In this document: positions 27,097 to 45,436 of the stretch, piece after piece | Numbering within the stretch: position 1 is the first letter of the stretch | How the letters are laid out: each line of letters begins with the position of its first letter | Assembly (NCBI GenBank): GCA_010093605.1 | Contig: MU004182.1 | Span: forward strand, 2,155,195-2,219,194 | DNA length: 64,000 nt | DNA from: Lophium mytilinum | Lineage: Eukaryota | Direction: 5' to 3' | Position numbers and translations under genes: made by a program | The notes under the pieces: generated by a model | Databases searched by the model: none | What the model saw: only the letters and a program-made list of their open reading frames with translations | What the model was told of the DNA's origin: nothing

Positions 27097-27629
27097 TCCT
27101 AGATAGTGGTCAGAATCTCACGCTGGTTTCATGATGAGGTGTCTAGGTGGACAAGTGACTCACATCCGTCCCTTAAGTGCTGCGCGTCGTTTTCACGGTT
27201 GTCCTCCCGCGCCTCCTCGAGCATGCTATCTATGCCTCGGGACTTGAGTGCTTTCTAGGGGAAAGTTTAGCACCAGCCACGCGGCTACATATTAGAATGA
27301 TGGGAAAATTGGGGACGTTATACGTACACCTAAGCACTGCTTGTACTGCTTGAAAAGAGGTTCGCATTCGTCTGTTGTCGCGTTGCCTCGAAGAAATTCT
27401 TGTGTAGTCTTAGATCATGGCTTTGATTTGATGATTTTGGAAAGACAGATAGAGCAAAGCAGAGATAAAGGACAGGAAAAGAGGACTCACTCTCGCTGTA
27501 CCATTTCAGGAAGCAGCTGTCGTAGCGTCTGTATTCATGCTTAGAGACTGTACGTAGGAAGGAGTGAACTCTGAAACTGAGAACATACTCTTTGACCTCG
27601 TTACACTCCGGCGCTAGTGAAGCCGACAT
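27097..27629 (-). CDS. MDM35: Mitochondrial distribution and morphology protein 35 (Mdm35/TRIAP1)
   Basis: Multi-exon: MSASLAPECNEVKE-RYDSCFLKWYSE-KFLRGNATTDECEPLFKQYKQCL-KALKSRGIDSMLEEARE, a twin CX9C protein. The 3' end is approximate. Confidence 0.9.
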
Positions 27630-36793: not shown

Positions 36794-37445
36794 TGATATT
36801 GTTAGTTACTTAAGGAGTAAGTCGGACACGTGATATAAGCTGGGGGTGTATGATGACTAATAAAGTTATAGATTGAACTGATAAGGAAGGATTGATGAAC
36901 GTGGGTATTTCTTTAGTTTTGTTCGGTTTCTTACGGAGGGCTGTTTTGTTTCGCACTGCTTGACTTTATGGCAATGGACGAAATGAAGTATGACAGAGGG
37001 TGGGAGGTTGAACTTGTTGTTGAAGGATTGAAATATATGAACGGACGGGATGTGTCCTGAGCACGGTGCTTTAGTTTTGCATTCGACCGCCGTTGATACT
37101 TCTGTTTAGCTTGCTATTGCGTTCTGTTGTTTACCTCTGGCTTGTCGTTGTCACTTTTGTTCACCTCACTATCGTGCTATATCGTCAATCCGAAGAATAA
37201 ATAAGAGAATGGTCTGTTTATGGATTACAATTCTCGGATCTCGCTGATGTTGAGGACCAAAGCGCAATAGAAATGCAAACTTCGTAACAACTGCATCCAA
37301 GACAGCCGATTGAGACCAGAGCGACAGAGGAAACTTCTCACCAATTAGCAGAAAGGCTCAGCGATATCACAGAGTATACTCACCTGCTAACGCGCCCTCG
37401 CCCTCTCCCACTCCTCTATCCCATCCTCCCTCTCCCACTGCTTCC

Positions 37446-38090
37446 TCAAACCCGGCATCGCCGCCAGATCCCTCGCGTACGCAAGACGCTACACATCCTC
37501 CATCTTCCGCTCCGCCCGCTCTCCGCCACCTCCTCCTCCGTCAACGGCGCACTGCCTTCGAAGACGAAATTCAAGGGGCGGCGCTGGGGCTGTGGGAGCT
37601 TTTCTCCTACGAGCACAGACTCATCACCCCCATCAACCTCAACCGCCGTCTGCCGCGTACTTCCCTGCTCATCACCCTCGTCAACCTCAATAGCCGTCTC
37701 CCGCGTCCTTCCCTGTGCGACAGCTTTCACAGCCCCACTCTTCGGCATCTGCCAGACCTCATCCGCCAAGCTGCTTGGTATCCTATAATTCCACCCCCCA
37801 AACAGTTTCTTGCGTTTCCTCCCCTTCTCCGCCCCTCCCACCCCATCCCCGCCGTACGCCGCATTTCCCCCGTCACGGACCGCCTGCGCGTGATTCCCCT
37901 CTTCCCACGCTTCCACAAGCTCAGGATGGGTTGCCTTTTTCGGCGTGCAGATCTCGGGCCAAGGTTGTCCGGTGACCGGGTGCGGTGCGTAGTGGATGAG
38001 GTACTCGGACATATCTTCGTCTTTGATGTAGTTGTCGGTGGGCAGGCGAGGCGGGGTGGTGGTGTGGGTGTCGATGGGTTGCTGGACCAT
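37446..38090 (-). CDS. Hypothetical protein with degenerate chromodomain-like N-terminus
   Basis: IKDEDMSEYLIHYAPHPVTGQPWPEICTPKKATHPELVEAWEE resembles fungal chromodomains (YLIxW...TG...W.P...V..WE). Repeated AIEVDEGDE/AVEVDGGDE motifs. Confidence 0.5.
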   Translation of the reverse strand: MVQQPIDTHTTTPPRLPTDNYIKDEDMSEYLIHYAPHPVTGQPWPEICTPKKATHPELVEAWEEGNHAQAVRDGGNAAYGGDGVGGAEKGRKRKKLFGGWNYRIPSSLADEVWQMPKSGAVKAVAQGRTRETAIEVDEGDEQGSTRQTAVEVDGGDESVLVGEKLPQPQRRPLNFVFEGSAPLTEEEVAESGRSGRWRMCSVLRTRGIWRRCRV

Positions 38091-38446
38091 GGCGGCGGTG
38101 TTGATGGGTTTCGGAATTGTACTGGTGGTGCTTATGTTAAGGTAGTCTGTTGCGTTAACAAGGGGCGTGTTGGATTGGAAGGATGCCTGTAGAGGATAAG
38201 GTGGGGTGAGAAGTACGTTTTATACAGTTTGTCCCATGCAATGATCACAGTAAAGGTTGACGAATGCCTGCGGAGGTGTTGAGCCGTCGCAGCACTGCGA
38301 GTATACAATGTAAGTCGCGTCCTTGGCTATGCGTGAGCATTAGGAGGTCGCCACCAGGAGCTTTCGAGCGAGCGATCACTTCGCTGACAGCTTCATCGAT
38401 TATAGAGATCAGTTCATGATATTAGACAATAAATTACACACAGGCA

Positions 38447-40770
38447 TCACCCAATGCCACCATTTCTTTGCCTGGCAGCCCAAATCGTGCTTGCGCCAGG
38501 CCCACCTCTTTTTGTATTGCCATTCGGCCACTTCTTGTTCGAGAACCCGTTCATTCCCGGAGTCGCTGGTTTCGACGCGTTGACATTGTCTGTGAGTTTT
38601 GTCCACAGTTCGACAATACCAGCACGCCTTGCTGGAAGCATGCTGTATTGGAGACTGTAGAGATTCTTCCGATGAATCGGGGGTACAAAGCGGCCGGTGA
38701 CGAGGCAGAGGAAGACGCCGGGGGAGAGATAGTGCTTCTGAAGGCGGTTGCTGAGTTCGAAGTACTCGTTGAACATAGCGGTAAGGGGCAGGGGAATTGA
38801 CTGCTATTGTGTTAGGTCAAGGTTACGGGAACGTGACGAACGGGCGCAAACCTTTAAGACAATGTAAGAGGTGGGCGCGGAGAGGTGGTGTTCCGGTAAA
38901 GGTGCGGAACGGGTATCTTGGAGATCGAAACGGATGCCGCCTTACACGAAATCAGTAATCGGTCATGAGAGTCGGTTTAGTAGGACTTACCTGGTAAACG
39001 CCGGGAGTCTTTGATGCGAAGCATTAATGCAAATAGCGGAAAGTGGTTTAAACATGCAAGCATGGTATCCAACGCAGCTTTCAGGGATATTATAGCCATT
39101 CTAGCAGACGCAAATGTAAAGTAGAAGACAAAGACGGTAGGTAGTAGGAAGAATAAGAGTGTGAAAAGGATGGTCCCGAGGAGAAGCTGATCCAGATCAT
39201 AGTCGCATGAGTCGATTCGATTGCGCAGAACATTACGCTTTTTGCCTCGAAAGAGGTGGAAGAGGGAGAAAATGATGGTGAGTTGCCAATTAAATATTCG
39301 GGCAGAGGCGATGTAGAACGAGTATATGTGCAGGGTCAACAGGGAGACAAGGTCCGAAAACAAGGATATTGGCATCGTGGCCCCGGCGAAGCTGGAGAAA
39401 CCAATGAAGTGGATGACGGCAGGGAGAAACGGCCTTAGCAAGGACATGGAGGCAGACCAATGATCAATGACCCATAGGAAGAGGTCTCCGAGAAATCCCG
39501 CCAGTTGGTTGTTGAGCTTCAGTCCACCTGGCCACTCCATGAGCCAAGAAATTGTTCGACGTAGTCCTTCGATCGACCACGTTGTGAAGATTGTGTCTAC
39601 TTGCGACGCCACATAGACGTGGTTCTCGATGATATATGAGCCCAATGCGATCCCGATGATGACGTCGTTTGCAACAAGCCATAAGCTGTTGTAAAAGCGT
39701 ATGTACTCTGGGTGGCTGTTGGTGATGCTTTCCCAGTTGCCCTTTCTCTTTCGCAGCGTCAAATATTGGATTGGCCAATAACAGAATTGTTGTAGGCGAA
39801 TGTCAACTTGCTGCGCCGTTGCTGATATGTCCTTCAAAGCAGCAGAATCTGGAGACACTCGCCATTCGAGAACGCGCATTATCATCTCGCCAGCCACTCG
39901 ATGTGCGATGAGCCCTAAGATGAAGAGTTTGGCTATTAAAGGGTATAGCCAAACGGCGGCGACGTACCATAGCCCCATGAGAACATAATCCCATAAATCG
40001 TTGGCAGACTTCACGACTGTTTCGCTGACGCTCAAGGCTCGTCGAACCCGGGTACCAATGAGGCCTACATTTTTCTGGAGAAGAGCGTTTAGCTCGAAAG
40101 AGCAATTGACTTGATCGATGATGGTGGGTAGCGACAATTCCTTCTGTGACGGTGGGCGAATAACGACGCTATGAAGCCGCAACTTTTCGACTAGTTTCTT
40201 CTTCCGCTGTCGTTCCTCCTCTTCCCGCGCCTCTACTCCTTCGAAAGCAGGATCCCATTTTCCCACCTGTTCTGGTTTATCTCCCAATGCTAATGATATC
40301 TGCTTCAATGACAGGTATTGCATGCGAGTCGGGTGTGGGCGGCGGTATAGGATGAATTGAAGGGTGATGTCGCAGTCGCCGGGGCAGAATATTCGAGGGA
40401 AGCGGGATGGGGAATCGCTGTATGCGGCTAAGAGGGCTGCGTTGAAGCTGGCAGGAGGCGACTCGGAGTTGATTGTTCCAAGGACCTGCAAGATCGATTG
40501 TCCACACCTGTCGAAGATATGGCTGATTGGATGCGGGCTGTTCCGGTAGAGGATTCCCATACGCAAGGCATGCTCGACACTCCTGATCTGTAGATTGTGA
40601 GTAAAGAGAGATCACATTCGAGGGCGGACCCATACCTCAACATCTTGCAGAATTGCCACCACAAAGACGTCCAACTCAGAATTCCTCCAGCCCACGAGAA
40701 CGCCGGGAGTCGGTGTAGTAGGCGCATCCGACGGCCAGAATATCCGCATCAGCCCATTATTTGTAACCAT
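38447..40770 (-). CDS. GPI1: GPI-GlcNAc transferase subunit Gpi1 (PIG-Q)
   Basis: Starts MVTNNGLMRIFWP (ATG 40770). Contains QQVDIRLQQFCYWP, YIRFYNSLWLVAND, WPGGLKLN, LFRGKKRNVLRNRIDSCDYDLDQLLLGTILFT and LNHFPLFALMLRIKD. Several introns. Confidence 0.93.
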
Positions 40771-40787
40771 ATCAACATAGCGCTCCC

Positions 40788-41183
40788 CTAGAACGAGCCC
40801 CGGCGTTTGAGCTGCTCACGGGCAGAGATACCGCTTCCCGCAGTGCGCGGATGCTAGGGGAAAAGTTCAGTATTCCTCCATATATTGGTAATTTGGTGAC
40901 AGCACTGACTAGGTCGATTTCTCGCGAGGCGAGGCGTTCGATGGGCAGGATGAAGAGGAAGAAGAAGACAGAGAGAATAGCGAAGGCTTTAGCGGCGCGT
41001 GTCTGCGAATTGTATCAGACGTCAAGACGCGACATGGGGGTAGGGAGGGGGGATCTGGCATACGACAACTCCGTGGTCCCAAGCGAATATTGCTAGTTCA
41101 TATAGCCGGGTGACGAGATCCCACCTGGCCGTGGAGTAGCCGGCTACGAATATTCCGGCAGTGAGGATCGAGAAGGGGTGCAT
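40788..41183 (-). CDS. 92-aa small membrane protein immediately upstream of GPI1
   Basis: Three exons (41183-41064, 41002-40910, 40853-40788) with canonical introns: MHPFSILTAGIFVAGYSTARWDLVTRLYELAIFAWDHGVV-TRAAKAFAILSVFFFLFILPIERLASREIDL-HPRTAGSGISAREQLKRRGSF*. Confidence 0.78.
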
Positions 41184-41868
41184 GAATCTCGAATTGGGAG
41201 ATGGTGGCAGCAAGCAGATGGAGCGAGGTCGTGGGAGGACTGGAGATTCGAGGCCGCGTGGGCTCTAGAAGGTGGCGGAGGGGCGACTCTGGATGTGCGG
41301 CGACGGTTCAGGCGTAGTGAAGGCGGTACTCGAGCAGATCATGGTGCATTGAGGGCATGGAGCGACGAGAGCATCACGGTGCCGTGTCCTTATGGATGCG
41401 GTTGCCAATACACGAGGCTCATTCGCTGTCCCCAGAGAAGGGGTGCGTAGAGAGGAGCACGCCAACGCAGCTGTAGTCACGGTCACGTGAAAAACATCGA
41501 GGTCGACTGCACTTCCTTACTTATACACCACCAACCCTGCGAAAATTCTCACCGGCACTTAAAACCGGCACGCTCGCAGTCATGTCGTACTATTCAAGCT
41601 ACTCCAGGTACGGTGCAAGCTTTCCCCATACTGTGCCGTGTTCTTGGCGCTTCGCTTCTTTTAAAAGGTGGCTGGGCCGCTCGTTCGGGCTTAGCGCGAG
41701 CGTGTCGCTAGCTCAATCGCATCTCAGCCTCTTTCTTAAACTCACTTCTGCCGCCGCGCTTTGGATTTTTCAACATCCGACCCCGCCGTTGTATTATTTC
41801 TATTGTGCTAATGTATTGTTCCTCGTCTGTCCAATAGAAACACGTACGGGCCCCAACGCGGCCCCACA

Positions 41869-44271
41869 ATGCCCGTTTGCCAGTTCTTCAAGCAGGGCAA
41901 CTGCAAGTTCGGAGGTACACTTCTCTCTCCACCCTCATACATTTCTCGTCGACCTCTTTTCACATCACACAAAATACCACCACTCCCAACCTCAATTCAC
42001 CATGTACTCGCTGACGATCCCCATTTATCCTCCCACAGACCGGTGCAGGAACGAGCATCCAGTCGGCCTCCAGCCGCCGAGCAACGCCAACCGCTTCGGT
42101 CCCTTGGGCCAGGCTCAGGCTCAGCAGAGTCGAGGATTCAGTGCCGGTAAGCATTCCATATCTCCTAGCATCTGCTTCGTCCCCGCCGCCTTTGAGTTTC
42201 TGCGAGCTTCCTCCATGCGGCTCGCGACGTCACGCCTCTGTCGTATCCGAATCTGTACTGACCCGCCATGCAGGGACTCAGGCGAACAAGCGCACCTGGC
42301 CGTAAGTTTCGGATCATATCCTATTGCTCTCCACGCTATTAACGTCTCTCAGGTATCATCTCAGTCCAGATACCATCAAGGACGATCTCGTCAAGGAACG
42401 CCCAGAATGGCCGCTCTCCGCCTACGGTCCGGGACGCGATGCTCCCCTCCAACTCCTCGAGGGAGGTATCGACATCAGTCCTGAAGAGATGCGCATGAGG
42501 TTCTATGCGGCCCGTGCTGCAGGACGTGAGAATCAATATGTAAGTCTCCAGCTCTGCAATCATCAACATCGACTAATACGTGGCCTAGATCGAGCAAGAG
42601 GCTGTCCTCGCCAAAGAGGCGCAGAACCAGATTGACAAGATTCTCAACGACCTCGAGGGTGCCTGCAAGTACATCGTCGATGGAGCGAACACTCCCCGCG
42701 ACCGAGCGAAGATATCCAAGGAGTCTGCCAACCCAGCCCATAGAGACTACTTCAGCATCGAGAACCAAGCCCGCGTTGCCAGGCGCAAGGCCGCCGCTAC
42801 CTCCGCCCCTTCAAATTCCTTTGGAACCTCTGCGTTTGGCCAGCCCTCTGGTCTTGGTGGAGCGCAATCGACCTTCGGCCAGCCTGCCGGCCAAGCCATA
42901 GGTTTCGGCCAACCATCCGGCTTAGGACAGGCCGCTGCTCCAGCTCAAACGTCTGCCTTCGGTCAACCGTCTCTTCCGGGTCAAACCTTGGGATTCGGCC
43001 AGCCATCAGCTCTAGGACAAGGCTCTGGGTTTGGCCAAACATCCGCCATGGGACAGAGCTCGGCTTTTGGACAACCATCTGGCCTCGGCCAGGGCACGGC
43101 ATTCGGTCAACCCGCTGCTCTGGGCCAGACTTCCGGCTTCGGACAAACTTCTATGCCTGGCCAGAAGTCTGTCTGGAGCCAGGCCGCTGCTCCAGCTCAA
43201 ACCTCTGCCTTCGGACAGCCGTCCAATCCAGGCCAGACCTCTGCCTTCGGCCAACCGTCCAATCCAGGCCAATCCGCCCCAGCTTTCGGCCAGCCAGGGT
43301 TCGGTCAGTCCGGCAATGCGGGTGCTTCTCCCTTCGCCCAGAATCAGCAGGCGCAAGCCTCCAATGCCTTTGGCGCCACCCAGCCTACGTCGACATTCGG
43401 CCAACCATCGCAGCAATCTACGTTCGGTCAGCCTGCCGGCTTTGGTCAACCCACTACTAGCGGAGATACTTCTAGCCCGTTCGCTCCAACTACTGCTCCT
43501 CCTACCGCCCCTGCTGCGAACCCTTTCGGACAATCTTCGAGCTTCGGTCAGCCCACCACCAGCGCCGCTGTTTCAAGCCCATTCTCTCAGCCCACTGCCG
43601 GCCCTACTACGAACCCTTTCGGACAGCCAGCAGGTCTGAGTCAAACAACGGGTTTCAGCCAAGCCGCCACCTCATCTAGTTCTAGCCCGTTCACTCAGCC
43701 GACTGCCGCTCCAACGACGAATCCATTTGGACAGCGCACAAGCTTCGGTCAGCCCGCTGGCGCTGCGGCTCCCACTCCCTTCGCACAACCCACTGCTGTG
43801 CCTGCATCGACTTCGTTCGGACAGCCGGTCACCGCCGCCCCATCGACCGGACTCTTCAGCCGCCACAGCGCCACTACAGGTGGTCCTTCAAACACCGCTG
43901 GCTCCCTCAATGTTCCGAAGTATCCTCCCGGCGCACCTGTCACTTCCTACAGCACTAGGAGCGCAGATGGAAAGAGGCTGCTTACCTGGAAGGGTCATCA
44001 AGTAGTCTACAAGGACAAATTGCAAGGTGGTAAGGTCGTCGGCGAGTATCCAGCCTACAAAATCAACAACAAGGACTACCAGCGTATCTGGTTCCCAGAC
44101 GGACCCCCGCCTCCTAACCCATGGGCCGAGGGCAGACCGGAGGAGTATGAGGGAGAGAATGGAGCAAAAGTTGCGCAAGCCTACCAGTTCTCCAGTGAGC
44201 ACGGGTACTACAAGGACGGGATCATGCCGAGTGTTCCGCCGAAGAGGGAGTGGATCAGTTGGGATCTCTAG
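41869..44271 (+). CDS. CCCH zinc-finger FG-repeat nucleoporin-like protein (Amo1/Nup42/NUPL2-like)
   Basis: [22 protein letters not shown] (CCCH), ERPEWPLSAYGP, DISPEEMR, many FGQP repeats, C-terminal GIMPSVPPKREWISWDL. Confidence 0.85.
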
Positions 44272-45436
44272 GTCACGGATTTTGCTGGGCGTAGTATTGG
44301 CGTCGGCGGTATAGCAGGATTCTACTGCCTTTCAAGGCGTATGGGCGGCCTTGATGGCGTTTCGAAGGACGGACATTGTATATTTTAGCGTTGATGCGGA
44401 AGCATTTCAATCATTTGATGAGCTTAGCTCTGATGTAGTGATGTGATGCTGGTTTATCGGAAGCTGCCCGTCACTATTTGAAGTCTGACACTGCTGGTCG
44501 CAGTCGGGTATGACGTGAAGTTCTTATCTATATCACGTGACTAGATAAACTTCATGATACACTTTTCCCAGTCATCTCTTCATAGAGCAACAACACACTC
44601 CTCAAGTCGTTCATTTCATGATACTCTCCCAGCTGCCCGTATCTCGTGCCGGCGAGGCTAGTTCGAAAGCATGAAACAAGAGTGACGGTCTTGGGTGAGG
44701 GCTTTGCTGGGGGCAGGTGTGTTGAATGCAGGCCTTAGCGTCTGATATCATGTGGAAGATGAGCCAATGCACAGGAATGCACCCAAGTTTGCTACCGTGA
44801 TAGCTTCCTATAGGTCATTGTGATGATCCAACAAGGTGTGTGACAGGGGAGGGAGGAAGACTTCGCTTCTCAGTTGAACACGATATCGGTGGCTTATTAA
44901 GGGCGTTGGGATGATAAGAGTATGCGATCTTCTATACGTGGCGGTCGTTTGTGGAAGGCGAGGAGGTGAAAGGAACTGCGCTATTACAAAAGTAGGATTT
45001 AAAACCACATGGAATGGAGGCTGCAACTTCGAATACTCGAGTCTTGATCTGCTATTGAAACCTTGATTGGGTTTGGAGAATGCAGAACGGATAATCTTCG
45101 AGCAGTGCTGTTTGCTAACTGCAAGAGACCAATCAAGCCCCTTTTTGCTCCACAAGCACCCCCTTCTCCTCTTATAGATAGCTAGAAAGAACAAGTTTAC
45201 TAAAGGATACTATATAAATCAGATAGATATAGTGCGCACTGCCCAAGTCAGGTAAAAGTTAAATGCTAGTCATGTGACCTGGCAGTTGAACCAATCAGAA
45301 GCCAAGAATCAAGGGCCGTGAAACCATTAGAGCGCCAGGATCATCTACAGCCTTATATCCACGCGGTCTAAAAAGAAACCTAGTCCAGTCCAATGCTTTT
45401 TTCAAGTGCCTCCATCCAGTCAACCTTCAAACGGCC

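Follow-up and report, generated by a model that had tools for sequence, protein, structure and literature searches.

The closest described counterparts of the locus considered here are the leaky-scanning bicistrons of green algae (PMC11892635; PMC7896298), which combine a weak start in a short first open reading frame (ORF) with a depletion of AUGs before the second, tolerate any relative frame, are deeply conserved, and often have their first ORF missed by annotation. The weak context and the AUG depletion constitute a tested signature, and reporters confirmed leaky scanning (PMC11892635). The present locus lies in a 64,000-nucleotide (nt) stretch of the Lophium mytilinum genome on contig MU004182.1 (hereafter the window, whose positions serve for all coordinates), where an ORF of 92 codons (ORF1) immediately precedes GPI1 on the minus strand. 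It shares all of these features, and it is well supported that the locus works like the algal bicistrons, carrying an uncharacterised conserved microprotein. It differs from them in its fungal lineage and unrelated genes, in keeping strong out-of-frame AUGs at positions -8 and +13 relative to the GPI1 start, and in having a strong upstream AUG (uAUG) before ORF1 in 37 of 53 distinct copies.

A second point of comparison, drawn by an earlier reading of the letters alone (the sequence-only reading), is PYURF-PIGY, a listed human bicistron (PMC13303939). Both loci place a small conserved ORF 5′ of a subunit of the glycosylphosphatidylinositol (GPI) N-acetylglucosaminyltransferase (GPI-GnT), apparently on one mRNA; the subunit there is PIG-Y and here Gpi1/PIG-Q (724 amino acids, aa), ORF1 has no Pfam match to the family of either human protein, and the fungal PIG-Y-domain gene sits on another contig. 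Human PYURF acts in mitochondria and is not known to belong to GPI-GnT; the comparison therefore speaks for the layout of the genes but not for a shared complex, and the two arrangements look like independent origins. In the viral pair ORF35-ORF36 of Kaposi's sarcoma-associated herpesvirus (PMC3561293), a short upstream ORF (uORF) near the start of the first ORF leads to skipping of that ORF and restart at the second, which recalls the uAUGs of many relatives, although the window copy has no such uAUG. Pairs of same-strand ORFs on one RNA have also been reported from long-read surveys of two other Pezizomycotina, Fusarium graminearum (10.1101/2021.11.08.467853) and Zymoseptoria tritici (10.1101/2023.04.26.537486), but for the most part these are described as read-through across genes that are transcribed independently. 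To be counted in the Fusarium screen, ORFs had to measure about 100 aa and genes to be annotated (10.1101/2021.11.08.467853), and a 92-aa ORF would thus be missed; GPI is not mentioned in the available main text of either preprint, whose supplements might list the locus. No paper on the ORF1-GPI1 locus or on a fungal GPI1 bicistron was found in the literature searched, mostly outside subscription journals, and the available part of PMC4599673 holds no passage on the bicistron.

Taken together, the evidence makes it very probable that ORF1 and GPI1 form a leaky-scanning bicistronic mRNA conserved across Pezizomycotina. One spliced transcript would begin upstream of ORF1 and extend through GPI1. 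At the ORF1 AUG, which stands in a conserved poor context, some ribosomes would initiate and produce the 92-aa membrane protein, and the rest would scan on; selection would have cleared spliced ORF1 of Met codons and strong out-of-frame AUGs, so that scanning ribosomes could reach the GPI1 start about 300 nt downstream.

ORF1 comprises three exons (41183-41064, 41002-40910, and 40853-40788, minus strand, like all elements of the locus) that encode 92 codons and a TAG stop (40790-40788), and its two GT..AG introns, both in phase 0, measure 61 nt (41003-41063, after codon 40) and 56 nt (40854-40909, after codon 71). A spacer of only 17 nt (40771-40787) separates its stop from the GPI1 ATG at 40770 on the same strand, and GPI1 is consequently out of frame with ORF1. 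The sequence-only reading had proposed this exon structure and this junction, and both are borne out, the former by the splice model and spliced contigs; it had overlooked an out-of-frame ATG at 40778 inside the gap. The downstream gene is identified as GPI1 by a Pfam PF05024 match (E 5e-112), and its model of 724 aa has four exons: 40636-40770, 38991-40587 with the PF05024 domain, 38852-38940, and 38447-38800 to the stop codon. ORF1 is single copy in genome G000, and the database protein P0001 is identical to its spliced product. A scan for AATAAA or ATTAAA poly(A) hexamers found none after the stop of either ORF1 or GPI1 and was uninformative.

The pairing of the two genes is conserved far beyond the window. 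A scan of metagenome contigs with an alignment of the small protein confirmed 237 places, and the counts given here rest on the best 80 of these. Of the 80 loci, which were chosen by ORF1 similarity alone, 73 have GPI1 immediately after ORF1 and on its strand, and in the remaining seven the contig ends 2-83 nt past ORF1. Gene models for 75 of the loci (L011, L048, L072, L073, and L075, truncated or unparsed, were left out) together with the window yielded 53 distinct coding sequences, 50 of them with the GPI1 start placed. The gap in these 50 is 6-32 nt long, with a median of 19, and the three frames occur 18, 16, and 16 times. Introns, where present, follow codons 40 and 71 (at the window's positions in 28 and 30 of the 53 distinct copies, respectively), one or both having been lost in some lineages. 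Other neighbours are not kept: the upstream neighbour varies among groups, and the window's downstream gene has no match in any locus.

The small protein itself is highly constrained. At E<=0.001, exon 1 retrieves at least 1,013 homologues, and identity is 90-100% among the 120 matches listed; the named matches of the homologue searches fall in Dothideomycetes, Eurotiomycetes, Sordariomycetes, Leotiomycetes, Orbiliomycetes, and Pezizomycetes. No homologue outside Pezizomycotina is present among the named rows, a minority of the best 120 matches of each search, and a full-library profile search with the ORF1 family gave 257 matches to which names are not attached. Exactly 92 aa are found in 149 of 165 distinct full-length proteins, and the family scarcely varies in its last 12 residues or in the place of its stop codon. 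Relative to the window copy, the median proportion of synonymous differences (pS) is 0.71, near saturation, and that of nonsynonymous differences (pN) is 0.14, with pN lowest in the N-terminal 40 residues (0.07 vs 0.15-0.20 elsewhere). The ratio of nonsynonymous to synonymous substitution rates (dN/dS) has a median of 0.11 over 70 unsaturated pairs; as judged by these sequence comparisons, ORF1 is under purifying selection. Both the adjacency and the coding constraint by which the sequence-only reading proposed to judge the small ORF are thus found.

The start codons of the two ORFs differ consistently in context. A strong context is defined here by a purine at -3, the hallmark of strong fungal start codons. 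In the window, ORF1 begins in the weak context AGATTC ATG C (41181-41189; T at -3, C at +4), and among the 53 distinct copies a pyrimidine occupies -3 in 52 and a C occupies +4 in all; the GPI1 start reads GTTGAT ATG G, a strong context, and a purine occupies -3 of GPI1 in 44 of 50 loci. When the copies are clustered at 85% identity, a pyrimidine at -3 is seen in 36 of 37 ORF1 starts versus 3 of 35 GPI1 starts. Extensive leaky scanning has been described in Neurospora (PMC7049704).

Equally distinctive is the lack of strong alternative start codons within spliced ORF1. Spliced ORF1 copies hold no strong-context ATG in any frame in 14,772 nt, against about 111 expected from the GPI1 body, and the 48 ATGs that remain are all weak; the sole internal ATG of the window's spliced ORF1 (41093-41101, at the Y28-E29 junction) has a weak context and opens two codons followed by a stop. 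The depletion is evident in all three exons (exon 1: 0 vs about 46 expected). ORF1 introns carry 26 strong-context ATGs in 3,209 nt, which is the background rate, and the constraint therefore acts on the mature mRNA. Where a synonymous choice would create a strong out-of-frame ATG, it is taken in 0 of 80 cases in ORF1 vs 180 of 353 in the GPI1 body, the corresponding figures for weak ATGs being 48 of 152 and 194 of 460. The protein sequence is affected as well: an internal Met occurs in 3 of 165 distinct full-length proteins, and variable hydrophobic columns contain any Met in 0 of 16 cases in ORF1 vs 37 of 70 in Gpi1 (Fisher p 4e-5).

Evidence for splicing comes from three public sequencing runs (X1, X2, and X3; none on record as RNA) that were compared with window positions 37300-44600, X2 deriving from a relative less than 90% alike and X3 being mostly 95-99% alike. 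A single 3,179-nt contig of X1, beginning at 41302 and ending at 37858, lacks all five introns of both ORFs, the two in ORF1 being spliced out exactly as predicted. It covers a 5′ leader (41184-41302) that contains no ATG, its end not being a mapped start site. Spliced contigs of X2 and X3 likewise bridge ORF1 and GPI1, with ORF1 intron 2 removed exactly and intron 1 to within 1-3 bases. Since the introns are missing from these contigs, the templates were spliced. In the metagenomes, L032 and L048 are spliced counterparts, covering both ORFs, of the genomic loci L046-L047 and L025/L028/L030/L031, to which they are >98.5% identical. Contig depths of the X runs and the uncovered bin 41448-41691 were not used as evidence. 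A contig spanning two genes does not prove a single transcript, as short-read contigs may merge overlapping transcripts; the claim of the sequence-only reading that one mRNA encodes both proteins is nonetheless strongly supported by the comparative signatures in combination with the assembled contigs, as distinct from full-length reads.

Several observations weigh against the bicistronic reading. The loci are related, so that all counts overstate independence. The 0 of 80 synonymous choices rests mostly on two sites, H37-G38 (0 of 41) and R20-W21 (0 of 25); at 11 control sites comparable to H37-G38, the rate ranges from 0.23 to 0.88. The X1 and X2 contigs continue past GPI1 into the next, non-conserved gene (possibly through contig merging), and false joins of transcripts are documented in Zymoseptoria (10.1101/2023.04.26.537486). 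Most of the long database proteins examined join ORF1 to Gpi1, as discussed below. Finally, the locus has non-overlapping conserved ORFs, a short gap, a free frame, a weaker ORF1 start, and AUG depletion in ORF1, as expected of a leaky-scanning bicistron, but across relatives the depletion does not extend to the gap or the 5′ leader. The spacer contains an ATG in 29 of 50 loci, including one in the window, and a strong-context out-of-frame ATG stands at -8 in 27 of 50, the window included, where plain leaky scanning predicts its loss; an inter-ORF AUG added in algae more than halved ORF2 output (PMC11892635). Nor are the 100 nt before ORF1 poor in ATGs among relatives (63 in 51 loci).

Two other accounts of the transcript need to be considered in this light. 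The contigs cannot separate one transcript from two overlapping monocistronic ones, in which the 3′ untranslated region of an ORF1 mRNA runs into GPI1 and the GPI1 promoter lies inside ORF1; the X1 and X2 contigs reach a third gene too, and in Zymoseptoria most polycistronic RNAs detected with long reads are rare relative to single-gene RNAs (10.1101/2023.04.26.537486). Such an arrangement would leave unexplained both the poor ORF1 start context in 52 of 53 copies and the missing strong AUGs of exon 1 next to unconstrained introns, and it would require a promoter within a coding sequence of dN/dS 0.11, even in lineages lacking one or both introns. Moreover, H37-G38 and R20-W21 both lie in exon 1, so the RNA from which Gpi1 is made must include exon 1, which argues against a GPI1 promoter within ORF1 and against reinitiation as the main route. 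We regard overlapping monocistronic transcripts as very unlikely.

Alternatively, GPI1 could be reached on a single mRNA mainly by termination and reinitiation after the 92-aa ORF, with the short gap as the working part. The gap is indeed held to 6-32 nt, more tightly than leaky scanning requires, and the mini-ORFs opened at -8 and +13 often stop on an in-frame ATG. Reinitiation would benefit from a strong ORF1 start, however, whereas this start is conservedly weak, and neither an overlap of stop and start nor the distance between them is fixed; cells also reinitiate inefficiently once an ORF of about 90 codons has been translated. Leaky scanning fits much better, because the ORF1 start is weak and AUGs are depleted as far up as exon 1, some 200 nt before the ORF1 stop. 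Of the two routes that the sequence-only reading had left side by side, leaky scanning is therefore retained, and reinitiation as the principal mechanism appears highly improbable.

Extra AUGs recur around the GPI1 start. In the window, the ATG 8 nt 5′ of the GPI1 ATG opens an out-of-frame mini-ORF of nine codons (40749-40778) whose TGA overlaps the second in-frame ATG (40749), and all copies with this ATG have a purine at -3. The out-of-frame ATG at +13 (40749-40757), also in strong context, opens two codons and ends in a TGA overlapping the same second Met. It is present in 48 of 50 loci, in an R..ATGG context in 41 of these 48 and opening two to three codons in 40, and its letters stay while the residue encoded at this place differs among loci (D 21, N 19, H 8, Y 1); the control rate of the synonymous choice behind it is 57%. 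In 15 of 50 loci, the frame opened at -8 and +13 has a further ATG at +43 of GPI1 (40428-40727), likewise out of frame with GPI1. Competition with the main AUG has been described in yeast for out-of-frame AUGs up to about 17 nt away, an upstream one being less inhibitory the closer it lies (PMC9743702). By analogy, we infer that the cluster at -8 and +13 probably competes with the true GPI1 AUG, keeping Gpi1 output low and damping it without blocking it.

Upstream of ORF1, the strong uAUGs of the 37 copies lie within 45 nt of its start (36% of copies being expected from flanking DNA). Of these 37, 28 share one frame; 23 of the 37 open a short uORF that ends just before the ORF1 AUG, and the other 14 overlap it. 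In these relatives a strong uAUG 12-40 nt before ORF1 could provide a second bypass, by which ribosomes would translate a short uORF, skip the ORF1 AUG, and restart at GPI1. Their presence on the mRNA depends on the transcription start sites. The window has no strong uAUG; at 41202, in the frame of the relatives' uAUGs, it has an ATC with a GCCACC context that may be there by chance. Four ATGs at 41374, 41358, 41349, and 41342 open ORFs of 11-25 codons (41265-41374); they lie 5′ of the X1 contig end and within X3 contig cover, and would be uORFs if transcription starts further upstream. The proposal that the TAT codon of Y28 persists because it ends an overlapping uORF was set aside as weak (TAT in 11 of 14 loci with an overlapping uORF, 17 of 23 loci with a short uORF, and 8 of 16 loci that have no uORF). 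Overall, extra AUGs that recur ahead of ORF1 and near the GPI1 start suggest an additional layer of tuning.

The database models that join the two ORFs raise the question of whether ORF1 is simply the N-terminal part of Gpi1, attached by alternative splicing, readthrough, or frameshift. A search for longer ORF1 forms returned 255 matches, the best 120 of which were listed, and among 128 long proteins examined, ORF1 is joined to Gpi1 in 105. Acceptors of the pyrimidine-AG type in a fitting frame exist in 18 of the 29 loci that have intron 2, at eight different positions and with none in the window. The junctions of the models are scattered, with 31 different lengths among the 84 that keep the first motif of Gpi1 and a further 21 lacking that motif, and all 105 lose the near-invariant ORF1 C-terminus. 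Readthrough could join the frames in only 17 of 50 loci, the ORF1 stop codon is conserved, and in the X-run contigs the only splice seen is the one ending in the ORF1 stop, bearing in mind that contigs drop rare forms. The fusion is most likely an annotation artefact; a rare fused isoform may exist, and ORF1 being in essence a piece of Gpi1 has a next to negligible probability. An assignment of ORF1 to Gpi1/PIG-Q (PF05024) was likewise rejected on the lack of a PF05024 match, the conserved stop, and the scattered junctions. The joined models do reveal the ORF1-GPI1 adjacency in many named genomes, and they account for the frequent automatic naming of the stand-alone ORF1 protein as 'PIG-Q'.

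The predicted structure of the 92-aa protein comprises helices at residues 3-18, 21-36, 39-71, and 82-88, with a mean predicted local distance difference test (pLDDT) score of 82. Exon 1 (codons 1-40), the most conserved part, encodes a hydrophobic helix at 3-18 and an amphipathic one at 21-36; exon 2 (codons 41-71) encodes a clear transmembrane helix at about 44-64 (mean Kyte-Doolittle 1.8); and exon 3 (codons 72-92 and TAG) encodes a basic tail with a near-invariant R-R-G-S-F end. Of the two hydrophobic segments noted in the sequence-only reading, the second is thus a clear membrane span, while the first is moderately hydrophobic (1.2) and marginal. No Pfam family fits ORF1 when four proteins are searched at E<=10 and 21 members at E<=1; one of the 21 members matched DUF454 at E 0.04, which falls below the cut-off and was rejected. 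The ORF1 model has no Foldseek match in the PDB at E<=0.001, a wide VIA structure search peaked at Z 5.4 with an rmsd of 9.5, and a PDB sequence search gave 0 matches. In the ESM Atlas the top two clusters are the ORF1 family itself, auto-named PIG-Q, and the named clusters offer no usable match, which indicates neither novelty nor absence. Two divergent 91-aa members, P0230 and P0241, show about 50% identity, keep the C-terminal motif without the usual N-terminus, and are possibly from an early-branching lineage.

The small helical membrane proteins PIG-Y/Eri1, DPM2, and PIG-P (PMC12182360) are of similar size, but ORF1 has no profile match to any of them, and they have genes of their own elsewhere in G000. 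In the same searches (four proteins at E<=10; 21 members at E<=1), ORF1 matched the profiles of neither PIG-Y/Eri1 (PF15159), DPM2, and PIG-P nor DPM3, PIG-H, Gpi2, and Arv1, and G000 has separate genes for all seven, that for PIG-Y (PF15159, E 1e-23) on contig C3. ORF1 accordingly fills no known subunit's slot. The PIG-Y-domain protein of G000 (L081:1474-2601, minus strand) has 375 aa with a long low-complexity N-terminal part, the Pfam model covering about 70 aa, and DPM3 lies about 5 kb from its gene on C3.

Linkage is the one ground in the sequence for the suggestion of the sequence-only reading that ORF1 might be a GPI-GnT partner. A complex prediction for ORF1 with Gpi1 residues 46-577, run without alignments, scored 0.00 and speaks neither for nor against contact. 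In the modelled human GPI-GnT ring there is an opening in the membrane beside PIG-Q (PMC12182360). Permanent coupling and the membrane helix make it possible, if somewhat unlikely, that the ORF1 protein is a membrane partner or assembly factor acting with Gpi1. An unrelated membrane function combined with passive cis-control of GPI1 comes close to an even chance; the SLC35A4 upstream protein acts on mitochondrial cristae, and human bicistrons often pair unrelated proteins (PMC13303939).

A further account, compatible with a bicistron, holds that the ORF1 peptide acts mainly in cis, as a conserved-peptide uORF whose invariant C-terminus would stall ribosomes in response to a metabolite or to the state of the membrane and thereby throttle GPI1. 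Inhibitory uORFs in poor context are a known control device (PMC3326321), and the arg-2/CPA1 attenuator peptide provides a fungal precedent (PMC7049704). Like peptides of the arg-2/CPA1 type, ORF1 conserves C-terminal residues at a constant spacing from its stop: the last 12 residues and the stop hardly vary and 149 of 165 proteins have the same length. Yet the most conserved part is the N-terminal 40 residues, far beyond the ribosome tunnel at termination, and the confident helical fold with its clear transmembrane helix is as expected of a released protein, so that a predominantly cis-acting peptide is judged decidedly unlikely. The invariant RRxS tail fits a protein kinase A-type phosphorylation motif. 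More speculatively, and with rather low probability, the 92-aa protein could be an extra, Pezizomycotina-specific subunit or regulator of the first GPI-synthesis enzyme, its ratio to Gpi1 being set by start stringency and decoy AUGs and perhaps switched by tail phosphorylation.

The surroundings of the locus are less uniform. A same-strand ORF (37446-38090, minus strand) begins about 350 nt past the GPI1 stop, has no Pfam match, and is entered by the X1 and X2 contigs. A tblastn search for it in the 80 loci, of which fewer than 30 extend 3.5 kb downstream, gave 0 matches; a tricistron including this gene (ATG 38090) was rejected on that ground, and because of it the contig run-on is treated as read-through or a possible assembly merge. 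The divergent neighbour on the other side (41869-44271, plus strand) has an N-terminal CCCH zinc finger (a weak Pfam match), many FG-type repeats, and four introns spliced in X1, and resembles a Nup42/Amo1-type nucleoporin. Upstream regions of 20 of 39 loci, including the window, fall in one tblastx cluster. In one group of loci (L014, L034, L052, L053, L056, L060, L063, L064, L066, L069, L071, L074, and L077), a gene resembling MDM35 (PF05254) is located roughly 600-1,000 nt 5′ of ORF1 on the same strand, and it is fused to ORF1 in several database models; the window's MDM35-like gene is at 27174-27629 (minus strand), 13.5 kb from ORF1. This proximity looks like ordinary microsynteny.

Fungal polycistronic RNAs have mostly been described as occasional read-through, and the ORF1-GPI1 locus apparently represents a dedicated, selected bicistron across six filamentous ascomycete classes. 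It exposes a very conserved microprotein without a Pfam family, hidden because gene finders fuse ORF1 to Gpi1 or label it 'PIG-Q', and published gpi1 deletions or tags based on fused models may have affected both genes. The test of strong AUGs in exons versus introns is applicable genome-wide for finding similar loci. Should the 92-aa protein prove to be a regulator or subunit of the enzyme, animals (PYURF-PIGY) and moulds would have brought GPI-GnT genes under bicistronic control independently of each other. The arrangement suggests that GPI synthesis is subject, at its first step, to dosage control by translation; the fungal cell wall requires this pathway, which is also being pursued as a target for antifungals.

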